A DNA stretch of 42,666 nucleotides from Candidatus Brocadiia bacterium (GTDB lineage Bacteria; Planctomycetota; MHYJ01; WSZJ01), in NCBI GenBank assembly GCA_013360825.1, contig JABWAY010000001.1:1-42666 (forward strand), given 5' to 3'. The translations under genes and the position numbers were made by a program. The number at the start of each line of letters is the position of its first letter. Position 1 is the stretch's first letter. The notes under the pieces are model-generated. The model was not told where the DNA came from. It ran no database searches and saw only the letters and a program-made list of their open reading frames with translations. Shown here piece by piece: positions 2,779 through 18,875 of this stretch.

Positions 2779-3426
2779 TCAGTACTTCACCGAGCACCCG
2801 TACGGCTTCGACTCGGTCACCGGCGCCGGCTTGCCCGACAGCACGGCGTCGAGCACCTCGACCACGTAGTTCCGGGCCCCGGCGATGTCCGCCGAATTCG
2901 CCGTCGGCCGGTCGTCGATCGCCCCGCCGTATACGATCGCCCCCTGCGGGTCGATCACCACCATCTGCGGCGTCGTCTTCGCGTCGTAGAGCCGGCCGAC
3001 CTTCCCGTCCACGTCCAGCAGCATCGCCGTCGGCGCGGCCCCGATCGATTTCAACGTCTCCGTCCACCCCGCCGGCTCCTGGTGCCCCTGCTTTCCGGGG
3101 GCCGATGAGCAGATCGAGAGCCAGACCACCCCCTTCCCCGCGTACGTCTTCTGAAGCCCCTGCATGTTCCCCGACCCGTAGTGCTTTTTCACGAACGGGC
3201 ACCCGTGGTTCACCCACTCCAGCACGACCCATTTCCCGCGATAGTCCGCCAGCGCGTGGGATTTCCCGGTGTTGTCGGGAAGCGAGAACGCCGGCGCGGC
3301 CGCGGCGGAGATGTTGTCCTGTGGGGCGGGGGGGGAAGTGGTGTTCCCATTTCCGTTCTCGGGCGACCCGCAGCCGGCGAGGAGGGCGGCGGACAGGGAG
3401 AGGGCGAGGGTGAGGGAGCGCGTCAT
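2779..3426 (-). CDS. thioredoxin-fold (redoxin/TlpA-like) lipoprotein
   Basis: Lipobox LLAGC after the signal sequence. Thioredoxin-fold core KWVVLEWVNHGCPFVKKHY and C-terminal YGCSVKY. The start overlaps the upstream gene's stop (ATGA at 3423-3426). Confidence 0.85.
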   Translation of the reverse strand: MTRSLTLALSLSAALLAGCGSPENGNGNTTSPPAPQDNISAAAAPAFSLPDNTGKSHALADYRGKWVVLEWVNHGCPFVKKHYGSGNMQGLQKTYAGKGVVWLSICSSAPGKQGHQEPAGWTETLKSIGAAPTAMLLDVDGKVGRLYDAKTTPQMVVIDPQGAIVYGGAIDDRPTANSADIAGARNYVVEVLDAVLSGKPAPVTESKPYGCSVKY

Positions 3427-4262
3427 CGGGGGGGCCTTTCAGGAGTGGTTGCGTCGATGGTCCAGGATGCCGTCGATCCGTCGAGATGGACGACGAGGAC
3501 ACCCCGGAGCCGGGTGACCGGTTCCTTCCGGCGCGGTGCCGGGAAGAGCCGGATGCGGAGGGCGACCGGGCTCGTCGGGTCGAACACGGCGGGCCTGGTT
3601 TCGTCGAGGGTGAGCGGGTCGGACGGGAAGAACTCGGCGGAGGAGCCCTCGAGTCCCTTCACGACCAGAACGATCCCCCCGGAAAATTCCTCCAGCGTCG
3701 CCGCTCCCGCGGGGAGTTCCTTCGGCAGCGACGCGCGCGCCGCGGCGAACGCGGCGGCGTGGGCCGGATCGGCGACCGGGGGGTCCTCCCGGATCTCCAC
3801 GCGCGCCTGGCAGGCGTCGCTTCCGGAGGTGCACGCTTCGTCGCTGCAGGCGACCCAGTGCACGGTCGCGCCGAGGATCGCGTCGCCGGCCGCCGCGCCG
3901 GCGGGGACCTGCAGGCTCACGGGGAGGAGGACTTCGCCCTCGTAGACGTAGGACACGAGCCCGTCCTGCACGAGGCGGTGCGGCGTCGGCCAGGCGATCG
4001 GGCCGGCGACCCAGCCTTCGGGCAGCTTCCAGTCCACGACCGGGGCGGCGCCGGAATCCCCCGGGTATTTCCAGTAGACGTGCCGTCCCGGCGCGAGCAC
4101 CAGCCTCACCCCGACAGACAGTTCCGTCCCCGGACGCGCGGTGGGGGTTTCGGCGATCAGCGCGGCCCGGCAGTCGGCGATCTTCGGCGCTGCATCCTGG
4201 GCGATCGCGGTGGAGCCCAGGGCCAGGACGAGGGCGGGGGCTGCGTGGCGCAATCGTTTCAC
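3423..4262 (-). CDS. DsbD N-terminal-domain-like (DsbC/ScsB-type) periplasmic thiol-disulfide protein
   Basis: Signal peptide MKRLRHAAPALVLALGSTAIAQ. GRHVYW and VHWVACSDEAC motifs are typical of the DsbD-alpha/DsbC-like fold. Translationally coupled to the thioredoxin-like gene downstream. Confidence 0.7.
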   Translation of the reverse strand: MKRLRHAAPALVLALGSTAIAQDAAPKIADCRAALIAETPTARPGTELSVGVRLVLAPGRHVYWKYPGDSGAAPVVDWKLPEGWVAGPIAWPTPHRLVQDGLVSYVYEGEVLLPVSLQVPAGAAAGDAILGATVHWVACSDEACTSGSDACQARVEIREDPPVADPAHAAAFAAARASLPKELPAGAATLEEFSGGIVLVVKGLEGSSAEFFPSDPLTLDETRPAVFDPTSPVALRIRLFPAPRRKEPVTRLRGVLVVHLDGSTASWTIDATTPERPPR

Positions 4263-4286
4263 GAGCCTTCACTCTAGCGGGGTGAC

Positions 4287-12664: not shown

Positions 12665-13057
12665 TCAGGGATCCCGCGGCGCGGGCGCCAGGCCGTAAAG
12701 CAGCGTGCCGCCGACCAGCCCGGCCAGCGTCGCCAGCGCGTAGAGCTTGCCTTCGCCCAACTGGGCGAGCGCGGTGCCGGGTCAGGCACCGGTGAGCGCC
12801 CATCCCGCGCCGAACAGCGCTCCGGCGGCCAGCGTCCAGCGATGGGCCGGTTTTGTTCTCACTTCGTGCGCCCGCCCCGACCGGCGCAGGGCGAAGAGCC
12901 CGAGGGCGGAGGTCGCGATCGCGGCTCCCATCACCCCCATGATGTGGAAGTCCTGGAACCGGAACATCCGGGTGATCGCGTCGTAGTCGGTCGCGCGGGA
13001 CTGATGCAGGACGTACCCGAAAGCGACCCCGAACAGCAGCGTGACGAGGCGGTTCAT
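12665..13057 (-). CDS. YeeE/YedE-partner (DUF6691-type) sulfur-transport membrane protein with in-frame TGA (candidate Sec) at 12782-12784
   Basis: Track ORF 12782..13057 ends ...ALFGAGWALTGA*. The same frame continues for 38 codons, PGTALAQLGEGKLYALATLAGLVGGTLLYGLAPAPRDP, to TGA 12665-12667. The joined sequence FGAGWALTGA-[TGA]-PG matches the family signature FG.GW.L.G.CPG, with TGA at the Cys. Confidence 0.65.
12753..12768 (-). promoter_or_regulatory. candidate SECIS-like hairpin downstream of TGA 12782-12784
   Basis: The mRNA reads UCGCCC-AGUU-GGGCGA: a 6-bp stem with a tetraloop containing G and U. The stem begins 14 nt after the UGA. Confidence 0.4.
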
Positions 13058-13554
13058 GCGAACCTCCCCGCGAGCCAGAACACCCCGTTGACGGCCGCCA
13101 CACCGGCGGCCATGAACCCGATCGTCGCCAGGAGACTCCCCCTGGACCCCTGGGCGAGCCCGACGATCGAGTGCCCGCTCGTTCAGCCCCCCGCCCAGCG
13201 GGCGCCGTACCCCGCGAGCGTGCCGCCGACGAACAGGAACGCCAGCCGGACGACCGGATGGCCGCTGATCCCGCTGTCAAAGTCCCCCATCGACGTGACC
13301 CACCCGACCTTCCCCGCCAGCGCCGCCCCGAGGAGCCCGCCGAGCGGGATCCCCGCGATGAACCAGATCCGCCAGGGGGCCTTGTAAGCGCTCTGCTGGA
13401 AATACCGGATCCGCGGGGCGATCCTGGCGCAGAGCCCTCCGATCCCGGTCGACACGCCGACCGGCTTCCCGGTCGCAAACGCAAACGCGGTCACGATCAG
13501 TCCGATCGCGGACCCGGCGACCCACCACGGCCAGGGTTCGGATAGCCATTTCAT
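13054..13554 (-). CDS. YeeE/YedE family sulfur-transport membrane protein with in-frame TGA (candidate Sec) at 13183-13185
   Basis: Track ORF 13183..13554 ends ...GYGARWAGG*. The frame continues for 42 codons, TSGHSIVGLAQGSRGSLLATIGFMAAGVAAVNGVFWLAGRFA, to TGA 13054-13056, which overlaps the next gene's ATG (ATGA). The joined GG-[TGA]-TSGH...SL.AT..FM matches the short YeeE/YedE signature G.GCTSGH...RSL.AT..FM. GGGAGG RBS about 10 nt upstream of ATG 13554. Confidence 0.65.
13117..13171 (-). promoter_or_regulatory. candidate SECIS-like extended stem-loop downstream of TGA 13183-13185
   Basis: In mRNA sense, CUCGAUCGUCG pairs with CGACGAUCGGG: 9 Watson-Crick pairs plus one U.G and one C-G. This encloses an upper hairpin CCAGGGG-GAGU-CUCCUGG. 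The upper hairpin needs a G.U pair that would be an A.C mismatch on the opposite strand, so the structure is specific to the sense strand. Confidence 0.4.
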
Positions 13555-13647
13555 CGGCTTCTTGCCTCCCTTCCTGCCTGATCGGCGACGGTTGCCCGGA
13601 CCATGCGCGGAACCGGGGCGTGCATGGTAGCAGCGGACCGGCGCCCC

Positions 13648-14847
13648 TCAGCGCTGCATCACCGCCGACCCTTCGCGCACACGCTCCCCGGGATGCAGGA
13701 CCACGGACTCGCCGGCCGCGAGCCCGCTGAGGATCTCGACTTCGAGCCCGCTTCGGTGCCCGACCTCCACCCGTCGCGCCCGCGCCAGGCCTCCCTCGAC
13801 GACGTAGACGCTCCACTCCGCCCCGCCCGGCTTCATCACGCGGTAGAGCGCGCTCAGCGGCGCGCGCACGACGTCGTCCGCGGACCAGGTCTGGATCGCC
13901 ACATTCACCGAAAACCCGTCGCCGAGCCGCGGCCGGCGCTCGGGCGGCTCGAGCAGGTCGATCACGACGTTCACGCGCTGCTCCTCCACACCCAGCGCGG
14001 AGACTTTCGTGAACCCCGAAGGTTCGACCAGCCGGACGCGCCCCCGGAGCTCGTGAGCGCCCCCCCACCCGGTGATCAGCGCGGCGCTGCCGGGCGAGAC
14101 GGCGACGGCGTCCGAAGTCAGCAGGTCCGACACGACCTCCAGTGCGGTCGGGTCGGCGATTTCCAGAAGCGGCGTTCCGGGGGAGACCGGCCCGGGGCCT
14201 TCGTAGATCACGCGCAGGACGCGGCCGCGGATCGGCGACCGGATCTCGAGCCGCTCTTCGCCCTCGCCGCGCTCGATCCGGGCCAGGGCGCTGACCGCGG
14301 TCTCGTGCTCGTAACGGGCGACATCGGCGGAGAACCGGGCGGACTCGACGGACTGTTCCGCCATCCGTTTCCGCACCTCGGCTTCCTCGAGATCCGCGGC
14401 GGGGATCGCCATGACCGCGGCCAGCTCCCGCTGGCGTTCGAATTCCTTCCCGGCCAGAGAGAGGGCCGCCTCGGAGCGCCGCCGCTCCGCTTCGGCATGC
14501 CCGACCGCCGCCTCGGCAGCCTTCGCCCGGGCCCGGAGTTCGGCGCGGACGCGCGCATCCAGGAGCGGCGGGGAACCCGGGAGGAGGTGCGCCAGGAGAT
14601 CCCTCGCCTCAATGGCATCCCCGGGGCGCGCCTGGATGCGCTCCAGGTCGCCGGCAATCGGGGCGGTGATCGTATAGCGTTCCCGCGCCCGCGTCCTGCC
14701 GTCCTCCTCGACCGCGGCTTTCATCGCCCCGCGCTCGACGCGGGCGATGTCGACGGCGACCGGCTTCGGGCGGAATGCCAGAAAAGTCCCGCCCGCCGCC
14801 CCGGCCAGGACGAGCAGAAGGGCCAGTCGCTTCAGCCATGTCTTCAT
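13648..14847 (-). CDS. efflux transporter periplasmic adaptor subunit (HlyD/MacA-type membrane fusion protein)
   Basis: N-terminal anchor MKTWLKRLALLLVLAGAAGG, lipoyl-like ITAPIAGDL and IRSPIRGRV, and a long alpha-hairpin. It lies 4 nt downstream of the permease gene. Confidence 0.9.
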   Translation of the reverse strand: MKTWLKRLALLLVLAGAAGGTFLAFRPKPVAVDIARVERGAMKAAVEEDGRTRARERYTITAPIAGDLERIQARPGDAIEARDLLAHLLPGSPPLLDARVRAELRARAKAAEAAVGHAEAERRRSEAALSLAGKEFERQRELAAVMAIPAADLEEAEVRKRMAEQSVESARFSADVARYEHETAVSALARIERGEGEERLEIRSPIRGRVLRVIYEGPGPVSPGTPLLEIADPTALEVVSDLLTSDAVAVSPGSAALITGWGGAHELRGRVRLVEPSGFTKVSALGVEEQRVNVVIDLLEPPERRPRLGDGFSVNVAIQTWSADDVVRAPLSALYRVMKPGGAEWSVYVVEGGLARARRVEVGHRSGLEVEILSGLAAGESVVLHPGERVREGSAVMQR

Positions 14848-14851
14848 CCGT

Positions 14852-17211
14852 TCACTCCTTCACTTTCAGAACACTCACAAGGTCCATGCCATCGAGCTTC
14901 CTGCGGACGATGAGGGCGGACGCTGCCCCTGCGGCGAGGACGACGAGCATGGCGAAGGCGTAGGTGCGCGGTTCGATGATGAGGGGGAAGCGGTAGAGTT
15001 CGGTGTCGAGGGACGCGATCAGGGCGGCCGCGAGTCCGTATCCCATGAGGCAGCCGAGGGGGAGTGCGAGGACGAGCTGGACGGCGAGTTCGCCGAACAG
15101 GATGGAGGCGACCTCGCCGCGGGTGAATCCCATGACGCGGAGGGTTCCGAGTTCCCGGCTCCGTTCGGAGAGCATCACGCGCGCGCCGTTGTAGACGACG
15201 CCGACGGCGACGATCACGGCGAACAGCACGAGGATGAGCCGCGTCACCATCTGCATCTCCCCGGCGGTCCCCTTGAAGATGTCGTAGGCGGCGGTGCGGA
15301 GCGTCGCGCCGGAGACGCGGGGCATCCCCTTGATCTCCCGCCATGTCTGCTCGCGGCGGGCGGGGTCGAGCAGAAGCAGGCCGCCCGAGGCCCGCTCGCC
15401 CTCGCGGAGAAGGGACGCGAGAGGGCGGGGGCTCATGTAGGCGGACATCCCCATCATCTCGTCGATCGTTCCGGAGACCGGCACGAAGGCCCGCCTGCGT
15501 TCGCCTTCCAGGATCTCGACTTCCAGCAGGTCCCCCGTACGCACCGCGAGTTTGGCGGCGAGGGCGTTGCCGAGGAGGAGCCCCTCGTCGGGGAGGGGGA
15601 CGTGCCGCAGGTCGGCGTCAAGGAGGCGGCGGAGGCGCGAGTCCGGGGGAAAGCTCTGGATGGCGGTCTCATGGCTCCGGGGGCCGGCGCGGAGGCGGAC
15701 CGGCGTGTCCCGGATCGGCTCCGCATAAAGCACGCCGGGGATCCGGGAGAGTTCGCGGACGGCGCGCGGCTCGAGCGACCGGTCGAAGGTGACGGTGAGA
15801 TCCTGGCTCTGGACGCGTTCGAAGCTGACTTCCATGACGTGCTCGAGGGCATCGGAAGAGAAATTCCCGACCACGAGGATGGCCAGCGAGACGGAGATCC
15901 CGGCGACCGCGATGGCGGTCGTGACGGGGCGGCGGGCCACGTTTCGAGCGACGATCCGCGCGGGCGGCGACAGCGCGGCCATGATTCCGAGCCGGTCGAG
16001 GATCCCGCGCCGGTAGCGGGTCGGGGATTCCGGCCTCATGGCCTCCGCCGGGGGGAGCCGGACGGCGCGCCAGACCGCGACCGCCGCGCCGAGGCCCCCG
16101 GCGAGGACGCTCAGCCCCACCGCTTCCAGCGCCTGCGCGGGTTCCACCCTGAAATCCAGCAGGGGGAAGATGAAGAACTCGCCGTAGATCCCCATCATGC
16201 CGGTGCCCAGGAGCCGCCCGATCAGGATCCCGAGCCCCGCGCCTCCCAGGACGACGAGGCAGGCGAGGCCGAGATAGCGCACGGCGATGGCGGAGTTCGC
16301 GTATCCGATCGCCTTGAGCACCGCGATCTCCTCCCGCTGCGTCGCGATCAGGCGGGTCAGCACGACGTTGACCAGAAAGGCCGCGACACCGAGAAACAGC
16401 ACCGGGACGGTGCCGCCGATCGAGTCCAGCTGCTTGAGTTCCTCGTCGAGATACCGCGCGGAGGTCTGCCGGTCGCGCCCGTACGCCGCCCGTCCGCCCC
16501 AGGGGGCCAGGATCAGGTCCACGCGCTCGGCGGTCGTCTCCGGCGAGGTTCCGGGGATCAGTGTCAGGCAGACGTCGTTGAACGCCCCATCCATGTCGAA
16601 CGCGGACGCAAGGGCGCTCCGCGACATCCAGAGAACGCCGAACCGCCGGTGATCGGGAAAGAGCGCGCCGGGGGCGATCTCGTATGTGTACTCCGGGGAG
16701 AGCGCGATCCCGGCGATCTCGAGGCGATGCCGCGTCCCGCCGAGAACCGCGTCCAGCGACTCCCCCGGTTTCAGCCCGTGCGCGCGCGCAAACGACTCGC
16801 TCACCAGAACTTCGCCGCGCCGCGCGGGGTCCGGCCACCGGCCGTCGCGGAGCGCCAGGTCATTGAGCGCCGGCCGCCCGGTCTCAGGAATGGAAACCAG
16901 CCGCCCCGACGCCGTCTCTTCCATTCCCCGCACACTGAGCGTGACGTCCTTCACCACCCGTGTCTCCACCACCGCCACGCCGGGAACATCCGCCAGCCTC
17001 CGGCCGACCGCATCCGGCGCGCTCGCCACCCCCGCGAACAGGTCCGCGAATCTCGACCGCTCAAACCAGGCGTCCCGGCTCTCCCCGAGCGAGGCCCTCA
17101 CGCTCCGCATGCAGACGAACGACCCGATCCCGCACGCCACCACAAGCGCAATCGCCCCGAGCTGCGACCAGAGCCGGAGCGTGTCCCGCAGCATTTTCCG
17201 GTCGATCGCCC

Positions 17212-17215
<4 letters not shown>
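14852..17215 (-). CDS. ABC transporter permease with two FtsX-type domains (MacB/YbbP-like)
   Basis: Within ORF 14852..18352. GTG 17215 overlaps the ATPase stop (GTGA); the alternative start is ATG 17194. [24 protein letters not shown], large periplasmic loops, and duplicated FtsX helices ([12 protein letters not shown]..., [12 protein letters not shown]...). Confidence 0.88.
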
Positions 17216-17994
<779 letters not shown>

Positions 17995-18188
17995 CAGACG
18001 GGATGGCGACGTGGCCGCCGAGGCAACCCGGCGGCGGCAGGACCCCCGACTCTACACCGGCAGTGGCGCTCTGCGGGGAGGAAGTCCGGCGTCGTTCGTG
18101 ACCAGGGGCCTCGGGTCCGTCAGGGAATCTCCGGCCGTGTACTCCTGCGCCCGCCGGCGCGTGCGGATTCCGCCTGCGAGGACCCGTT

Positions 18189-18875
18189 TCAGCGGCGACC
18201 GACAGAGGCGTACCGGGTCGGGTCCGGCACGCCGGCGGCGCGAAACCCACGGCGGCGGAGGACGCAGGCATCACACGCTCCGCACGCGAGTCCGCCGCGG
18301 CCCGGGTCGTAGCAGGAGTGCGTGAGGGCGTAGTCGACCCCGGCGCGGACACCGGCCCTGATGATCTCCGCCTTGGTCAGCCGGACGAGCGGCGCGTGGA
18401 TCCGGAACTTCTGCCCCCCTGCCGCCGCGCGCGTCCCCGCGTTCAGCGTCTTCCGGAACGCCGCCAGAAACGCGGGGGTGCAGTCCGGGTACCCGCTCGA
18501 GTCGAGCACGTTCACGCCGATCACCAGGTCGCGCGCCCCGATCGTCTCCGCCAGCGCCGCAGCGAACGCGAGGAAGATCGTGTTCCGCGCAGGGACGTAC
18601 GTCGCCGGGATCCCTCTCCCGATCCCCCGGCGCCGCGGCACCGCGATCGACCGGTCCGTCAGCGCAGACCCGCCGAACGCGCCGAGATCGATCGACACCA
18701 CGCGGTGGTCCCGGATCCCGAGGTGCCGCCCCACCTTTCGCGCCGCCGCAATCTCCACCGCGTGGCGCTGCCCGTATCGAAACGAAAGGGCGTGCAGCTC
18801 AAACCTCCCGCAGAGCAGCGCCCCGGCGGTCGCGGAGTCCAGGCCCCCGGAGAGGAGGAGCACGGCGGGTTTCAT
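18189..18875 (-). CDS. queC: 7-cyano-7-deazaguanine synthase
   Basis: PP-loop LLSGGLDS, VPARNTIFL, and the C-terminal Zn cluster SCYDP...CGACDAC. Confidence 0.92.
   Translation of the reverse strand: MKPAVLLLSGGLDSATAGALLCGRFELHALSFRYGQRHAVEIAAARKVGRHLGIRDHRVVSIDLGAFGGSALTDRSIAVPRRRGIGRGIPATYVPARNTIFLAFAAALAETIGARDLVIGVNVLDSSGYPDCTPAFLAAFRKTLNAGTRAAAGGQKFRIHAPLVRLTKAEIIRAGVRAGVDYALTHSCYDPGRGGLACGACDACVLRRRGFRAAGVPDPTRYASVGRR

Follow-up and report, generated by a model that had tools for sequence, protein, structure and literature searches.

We describe two adjacent half-size genes of the YeeE/YedE family, each carrying an in-frame TGA codon at its conserved cysteine, in a stretch of 42,666 nucleotides (hereafter the window; contig JABWAY010000001.1, positions 1 to 42,666) from a metagenome-assembled genome (MAG) of ‘Candidatus Brocadiae bacterium’. 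Comparison with homologous sequences indicates that both UGA codons are in all likelihood recoded as selenocysteine (Sec) in a two-subunit YeeE/YedE-type channel of the PmpA/PmpB kind. We favour Sec recoding because both TGAs sit on the conserved Cys of the family and are kept across assemblies and orthologues, because the codons downstream of them are constrained, with hairpins at the distance expected for a SECIS (selenocysteine insertion sequence) and with TGA serving as an ordinary stop elsewhere, and because the YeeE/YedE family is already listed with predicted selenoproteins. Recoding at both UGAs is strongly supported but not proven.

A preliminary description of the window, made from the nucleotide sequence alone, had pointed to the TGA in the first of the two genes (gene 1) as a candidate Sec codon, and its coordinates and translation of the gene, the 42-codon extension and the overlap with the next gene all proved exact on re-reading. 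Gene 1, encoding a PmpA/YedE1-like half-size protein, occupies 13054..13554 on the minus strand and comprises 166 codons, of which codon 124 is the predicted Sec codon. Its open reading frame starts with the ATG at 13554, ten nt downstream of the end of a Shine-Dalgarno-like GGAAGGGAGG (13565..13574, minus strand) read off the sequence, and continues to ...GYGARWAGG before the TGA at 13183-13185 (minus strand). Past this codon the frame stays open for 42 codons (TSGHSIVGLAQGSRGSLLATIGFMAAGVAAVNGVFWLAGRFA) until a TGA at 13054-13056, which overlaps the ATG of gene 2 as ATGA. For profile searches a Cys was put in place of each in-frame TGA, and the joined 166-aa product then matched PF04143 (Sulf_transp) with 58.7 bits against a cut-off of 27 over profile positions 171-308 of 310, which is the C-terminal half. 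When the product was aligned with 25 database homologues (26 sequences in total), the TGA came to stand in the near-invariant Cys column of GG[C]TSGHSI, where the preliminary description had placed it, and every full-length homologue aligned has Cys in this column. Compared with proteins of known structure, gene 1 aligns with residues 192-318 of S. thermophila YeeE and the TGA falls on C293. In that protein C22, C91 and C293 are located about 7 Å apart along the proposed thiosulfate path, and C91 and C293 are essential (Tanaka et al., PMC7449682). The GenBank entry for gene 1, NUN47207.1, is a YeeE/YedE family protein of 123 aa annotated as truncated.

The TGA flagged in the preliminary description is thus real but constitutes only half of the locus, as a second TGA at 12782-12784 (minus strand) in the adjoining gene had been missed. 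Gene 2 encodes a PmpB/YedE2-like (DUF6691) half-size protein at 12665..13057 on the minus strand, with 130 codons, of which codon 92 is the predicted Sec codon. It reads from the ATG at 13057 through ...GAGWALTGA to the TGA, continues with PGTALAQLGEGKLYALATLAGLVGGTLLYGLAPAPRDP and ends at the stop codon at 12665-12667, so that 38 codons beyond the TGA complete the full 130 aa. The context of the TGA is GWALTGA[U]PGTALAQLGEG, and the TGA occupies the position of the single conserved Cys of that protein (GWALTG[AT][C]PG), where homologues show GWALTGACPGTALAQ. The 130-aa product matches the N-terminal half of PF04143 with 52 bits (cut-off 27) and DUF6691 (PF20398) with 30.3 bits (cut-off 27), and it aligns with residues 6-106 of S. 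thermophila YeeE, where the TGA coincides with C91. GenBank lists it as NUN47206.1, a 91-aa hypothetical protein annotated as truncated, from the same MAG as NUN47207.1. Since two half-size YeeE/YedE matches lie side by side, the locus constitutes a split YeeE/YedE pair of two genes, both with an in-frame TGA in the place of the conserved Cys codon.

It is clear from independent assemblies that neither TGA is a sequencing error. At least 25 blocks of independent assemblies, among them Logan assemblies of many SRA runs and the NCBI MAG contig JAPKGT010000078.1, contain exactly the truncated product of 123 aa. At the first site TGA is present in all 14 same-species loci from such assemblies, which rules out the read error that the preliminary description had considered, and at the second site in all 13 loci where gene 2 is readable. 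A strain variant with approximately 99% identity keeps both TGAs despite 9-10 substitutions elsewhere in the pair. A different genetic code can be dismissed as well, in agreement with the preliminary description: TGA is the commonest ordinary stop codon in the window, hutU and Cu-oxidase_4 (pgeF) terminate at TGA just past the last Pfam domain, the gene for the membrane fusion protein (MFP) discussed below also uses TGA as a normal stop, and gene 1 itself ends at TGA in 13 of 13 Sec-form loci with a readable gene 1 end. Scanning the window on the basis of GC content at third codon positions revealed no further coding-like in-frame TGA.

Orthologues with the same arrangement were found in metagenomes. 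A 91-aa database match of 70% identity (P0145) led to a JGI contig (L095) whose pair is approximately 70% identical to that of the window and has TGA at both positions, in the contexts ARWADG*TSGHSIVG and GWALTGA*PGTALAQVGEG. A metagenome collection was scanned with the degenerate DNA pattern R-x-A-x-G-TGA-T-S-G-H-S-I, resulting in 16 loci, 12 of which are genuine gene 1 orthologues with TGA; the remaining L096, L097, L098 and L103 are chance pattern matches devoid of a YeeE-like reading frame. With the window and L095 included, the partner gene has TGA at the Cys position in 10 of 11 readable pairs, L109 being the exception; for the metagenomic partners the count is 9 of 10 readable. A corresponding scan of genome contigs with a pattern built on the Cys motif gave Cys forms only, and these served as controls. 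The closest Cys-type relatives of gene 1 that we compared, P0021 (L112), P0024 (L113) and P0002 (L116), turned out to belong to mixed pairs with Cys (TGC) in gene 1 and a TGA followed by a hairpin in gene 2, showing that the two Sec positions are not strictly coupled. Judged from these loci, the gene 2 Sec form appears to be at least as common as the gene 1 Sec form, with the PmpB type possibly the commoner of the two. Altogether 16 TGA-bearing loci, the window included, stand among Cys forms, and the alternation between TGC and TGA that the preliminary description had asked for is therefore observed. In a rough neighbour-joining tree the Sec forms occur in several places among the Cys forms. 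Such a scattered distribution is the usual pattern of families with alternating Sec and Cys.

Purifying selection acts on the codons past each TGA no less strongly than on those ahead of it. Within the Sec-form set the ratio of nonsynonymous to synonymous differences (pN/pS) in gene 1 is 0.39 for the 36 codons after the TGA and 0.60 for the 36 codons before it, while the values for gene 2 are 0.43 after and 0.42 before. In the window sequence no in-frame start codon directly follows either TGA from which the tail could be expressed separately. The tails downstream of both TGAs are accordingly predicted to be translated as parts of the full-length proteins, and for the 42 codons of gene 1 the clear homology to family members together with the purifying selection bears out what the preliminary description had proposed.

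Bacterial SECIS elements reside within the coding sequence, and by the rules of bSECISearch the apical loop lies roughly 16-37 nt downstream of the UGA with a G at its start. Folding all Sec forms together with RNAalifold gave a poor consensus, because the hairpins differ between two clades and are offset by one codon, and the clades were then analyzed separately. In gene 2 of the window a candidate SECIS is formed at 12749..12772 (minus strand), with the core UCGCCC-AGUU-GGGCGA at 12753-12768 and a loop that contains GU and begins 19 nt after the UGA. The homologous CUCGCCC-AG(G/U)U-GGGCGAG is present in five of five clade B Sec forms (with one mismatch in L100) and in none of seven Cys forms matched for GC content, even though these seven encode an identical or almost identical ALAQ(L/I/V)GEG through different codons. 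The corresponding clade A hairpin in gene 2, UCA(A/G)CUC-GGN-GAG(U/C)UGA, is 100% paired and shows a compensatory change from CAA/UUG to CAG/CUG. We consider the gene 2 SECIS candidate reasonably supported.

Rare codons are found in the candidate SECIS hairpins of both genes. In a codon usage pool of the Sec-form loci and the window, the Leu codon UUG used by the window hairpin (12759-12761) makes up about 3% of Leu codons, and other rare codons within the candidate SECIS loops and stems are CAA (7% of Gln), GGA (12% of Gly) and GUU (5% of Val). The rare succession GGA GUU is found in the clade A loci L102, L105, L108, L110 and L111. In close Cys-form relatives the same residues are encoded by common codons. 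This is illustrated by the peptide ILGVAQG, which is encoded by both L111 (Sec) and L112 (Cys), with the hairpin-forming GGA GUU only in L111.

The SECIS candidate of gene 1 is tentative. It is an extended hairpin at 13114..13175 (minus strand), corresponding to nt 11-72 after the U of the UGA, with a lower stem of 12 bp and an apical GGU loop starting 34 nt after the UGA. Four of four clade B Sec forms have it, with a compensatory change from GUC/GAC to GUG/CAC in L100, and a GGG codon that lengthens the stem is used by four of four Sec forms versus one of seven Cys forms. In clade A, gene 1 has the hairpin (U)CCUGGG-AGUUG-CCCAGG(G), which is 100% paired and includes one compensatory pair. 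A long-range stem of GAUCGUCG...CGACGAUC in gene 1 was first taken as the SECIS and has been downgraded to tentative, as it is present in some Cys forms as well and is partly a by-product of a CGAUCG palindrome arising from Ser-Ile and Thr-Ile-Gly codons.

Several observations weigh against the Sec interpretation. The extended hairpin, which is the sole gene 1 candidate in the clade of the window, also forms in two of the seven Cys forms, a similarity that can be ascribed to the CGAUCG palindrome imposed by the codons. Folding energies past the TGAs do not fall below those of synonymous-codon shuffles and are not significant against dinucleotide shuffles either; as coding sequence with approximately 69% GC folds strongly anyway, the energy of the whole region is uninformative. 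For any one sequence by itself, the test for the specific hairpins is no more than borderline. Genes for selA, selB, selD and tRNA-Sec (selC) are absent from the 42.7-kb window and from the fetched loci, and ARAGORN found nothing in the window or in 15 related loci, nor did a scan of the window against Rfam at the gathering threshold. To our knowledge Rfam is without a bacterial SECIS model, and the null Rfam scan is thus uninformative. The neighbourhood of the pair in the window contains no genes for sulfur metabolism or selenium, so that the substrate can be inferred from relatives only. Finally, gene 2 of L109 has TGG instead of TGA (oriented position about 5746), while this locus retains both the gene 1 TGA and the hairpin downstream of the gene 2 site; the TGG might reflect an error in sequencing or a loss that happened recently, or it might hint at near-cognate decoding.

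Split YeeE/YedE systems with known function give the framework for the interpretation of the pair. PmpA and PmpB of Serratia sp. ATCC 39006 and YedE1 and YedE2 of Cupriavidus pinatubonensis are likewise encoded by adjacent half-size genes. PmpA and PmpB match the C- and N-terminal halves of YeeE, respectively, keep one Cys each, equivalent to C293 and C91, and have been proposed to form a heterodimer (Li et al., PMC11582611). YedE1E2 imports zero-valent sulfur, both proteins are required for function, and changing either single Cys (C104, C101) to Ser abolishes activity (PMC10812762). The window pair resembles PmpA/PmpB in that gene 1 corresponds to the C-terminal half with the C293 position and gene 2 to the N-terminal half with the C91 position, each with one conserved Cys position. 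It is different from both known pairs in that both essential Cys positions are predicted to be Sec and in that no persulfide dioxygenase, rhodanese or ArsR-type regulator is adjacent; furthermore gene 1 is longer than the PmpA/YedE1-type protein (166 aa versus about 130). By alignment, the window pair is best described as a PmpA-like/PmpB-like pair with predicted Sec at both essential positions.

TsuA (YeeE of S. thermophila and E. coli; PDB 6LEO, 8J4C) belongs to the same fold family, and the Sec positions of the window align to its C293 and C91. TsuA consists of one chain, 330-350 aa long, with nine transmembrane helices and a third Cys, C22, in the position of which the window has Thr, and it needs the TusA-like partner TsuB (YeeD), whereas no TusA-like gene is located near the window pair. 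We rejected assignment as a TsuA equivalog, since the proteins are half-size, TsuB is not adjacent, and the scores with the NCBIfam TsuA models (28.5 and 28.9 bits for NF052577 with a cut-off of 400, and 18.8 for NF041049 with a cut-off of 645) amount to only 19-29 bits against 400-645. The selenium-associated YedE transporters described by TIGR04112 and NF033796 are members of the same superfamily and offer a thematic link to selenium, but they are full-length, contain Cys and are defined by linkage to selD and yedF. This assignment was rejected too, as selD and yedF are not found nearby and the gene 2 scores of 32.9 bits for TIGR04112 (cut-off 200) and 24.1 bits for NF033796 (cut-off 350) are far below the cut-offs.

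In the mechanism that we propose, SelB would supply Sec-tRNA(Sec) at the UGA at 13183-13185 in gene 1 and at 12782-12784 in gene 2, being recruited by a stem-loop 15-40 nt downstream within the coding sequence, and translation would run 42 and 38 codons further to give the full-length 166- and 130-aa proteins. By analogy with the PmpAB proposal and with the co-requirement of YedE1 and YedE2, two four-helix subunits may pair as a pseudo-symmetric heterodimer, in which the Sec of gene 1 (C293, periplasmic side) and the Sec of gene 2 (C91, centre) would both be placed on the conduction path. Selenolates, being stronger nucleophiles and better leaving groups than thiols, could then relay sulfane sulfur inward, and this sulfur might come from polysulfide, persulfide or thiosulfate if the characterized relatives are a guide. 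For the window pair, both the heterodimer and the substrate are inferred from these relatives.

One alternative to recoding takes the TGAs as true stops, with the genes truncated or decaying or with the 123-aa and 91-aa fragments being functional in their own right. This would fit with the products reported by GenBank and all gene callers and with the fact that Sec machinery is not seen in the window. It would, however, require two independent stops to have hit exactly the two essential Cys codons and to recur in 16 or more loci down to approximately 45-50% identity, in frames that remain open to the normal C-terminus with pN/pS values of 0.39-0.43, that retain the ATGA translational coupling, and that have no in-frame start just past the TGA to express the tail separately, and we therefore find it extremely improbable. 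Reading of the UGA as an amino acid different from Sec, either Cys by a tRNA-Cys(UCA) or SelB-like system or Trp by near-cognate suppression, is also highly unlikely, although tRNAs that recode UGA as Cys have been suggested for certain bacteria and L109 combines TGG (Trp) at the gene 2 position with a retained hairpin. Every Cys form plainly uses TGC or TGT, a Trp in place of an essential nucleophilic Cys makes no sense functionally, other genes on the same contigs terminate at TGA, and the YeeE/YedE family has already been catalogued with Sec members; moreover, UGA that alternates with Cys and is followed by a hairpin is what characterizes Sec.

A third possibility leaves Sec in place and concerns the cargo: instead of sulfane sulfur or thiosulfate, the pair could move or handle selenium species such as selenide or selenotrisulfide, much like the selenium-linked YedE proteins. 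In its favour are the implication of YedE in selenium metabolism (PMC9312934, PMC11582611), the AIR-synthase-family gene located after the pair in L110, and the weak matches of gene 2 to TIGR04112 and NF033796 given above. These scores are far under the 200 and 350 bits demanded by the models, neither selD nor yedF adjoins the pair in the window or the fetched loci, relatives of the pair are found behind a persulfide-dioxygenase-rhodanese fusion (P0007) or behind a rhodanese (L106), and the only characterized split pair imports zero-valent sulfur (PMC10812762). A selenium cargo thus appears unlikely to us. The reading of the gene 1 TGA as Sec, with which the preliminary description began, is on the other hand supported by the data, and it gains weight from the second TGA at the Cys of the partner and from the Sec-form-specific hairpin.

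The preliminary description left open whether Sec-containing YeeE/YedE proteins had been catalogued. They have: a PF04143 family protein with a GUxSG motif and one Sec, exemplified by WP_012471001.1, is listed among predicted selenoproteins (PMC9312934, PMC13188914). The gene 1 motif GG-U-TSG fits this entry, which comes from the same Pfam family and is based on the same kind of prediction from UGA and Cys homology, and gene 1 is therefore a further member of a known selenoprotein family. What the catalogue lists is one protein with a single Sec, for which no mechanism is described, while in the window the partner is also predicted to have Sec (G-[AT]-U-P-G), giving two per predicted channel, and the host is a Planctomycetota MAG. 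A full-text literature search revealed no paper joining YeeE with selenocysteine beyond these two reviews, and the main texts of the Global Ocean Sampling paper (PMC2398784) and of Peng et al. (PMC5029168) leave the YeeE/YedE family unnamed. The DUF6691/PmpB-type Sec form (G-x-U-P-G), the double-Sec pair and the mixed Cys/Sec pairs hence appear undescribed. As an extension of a known selenoprotein family the finding is modest, with a useful mechanistic implication.

The use of Sec is almost confined to residues that perform redox or nucleophilic chemistry. Sec at both essential pore cysteines would consequently be evidence from natural variation that these cysteines act chemically on the substrate, beyond donating hydrogen bonds. 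If so, YeeE/YedE channels would move chalcogen by a covalent nucleophilic relay through Se-S intermediates, in contrast to the current proposal of passive S-H-S hydrogen bonding in TsuA, and the alternation between Cys and Sec would offer an experimental handle on the chemical role of the pore cysteines. We put it at an even balance that both subunits carry Sec at the two essential pore positions as a Sec-Sec relay within the membrane, with the PmpB/DUF6691 type outside current catalogues. What would then be added to the prokaryotic selenoproteome is a system of two subunits and two Sec residues embedded in the membrane, together with UPG in DUF6691 as a probable new Sec motif. The G-x-U-P-G type appears no less widespread than the catalogued GUxSG type, and it occurs alone beside a Cys-type partner in L112, L113 and L116. 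If the recoding is real, both genes are mis-annotated as truncated in GenBank and in every automated gene call, and the same mis-annotation extends to a whole set of soil, groundwater and Planctomycetota orthologues.

Upstream of gene 1, at a distance of 93 nt and on the same strand, the window contains a MacB-type ATP-binding cassette (ABC) efflux system (about 13648-18350) consisting of an ABC_tran protein, a 787-aa FtsX permease and a 399-aa HlyD/MFP protein, and downstream of the pair lies a GH15 gene. Genes for sulfur metabolism are frequent neighbours of the split YeeE/YedE family without defining it. Association with persulfide dioxygenase or rhodanese was seen only in the relatives P0007 and L106: P0007, from the nearest Cys-form clade, is directly behind a metallo-β-lactamase-fold (persulfide-dioxygenase-like)/rhodanese fusion and a YgaP-like membrane protein, and the Sec form L106 is behind a rhodanese domain (L106 1-228, CRTGHRS loop). 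The AIR-synthase-family gene (PF00586) after the Sec pair in L110 (2245-2808) has no obvious SelD N-terminal motif, and its identification as SelD was not demonstrable. No conserved partner gene emerged from the neighbourhoods of the Sec-form loci.

A few further genes were observed around the pair and its relatives. Genes related to thiol-disulfide exchange, one with a DsbD_N domain and one of the AhpC/TSA-Redoxin type, are present at 2779-4268 on the minus strand of the window, about 9 kb from the pair, as intact open reading frames with no in-frame TGA. In L104 the open reading frame translations indicate an RND-type heavy-metal-efflux-like system upstream, at the position where the window has the MacB system. 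Two clade B Sec-form contigs, L095 (915-1220, recognized by eye) and L106 (1242-1583, Pfam match), share a gene for a small HEAT-repeat protein just downstream of the pair, in the position that is taken by GH15 in the window.

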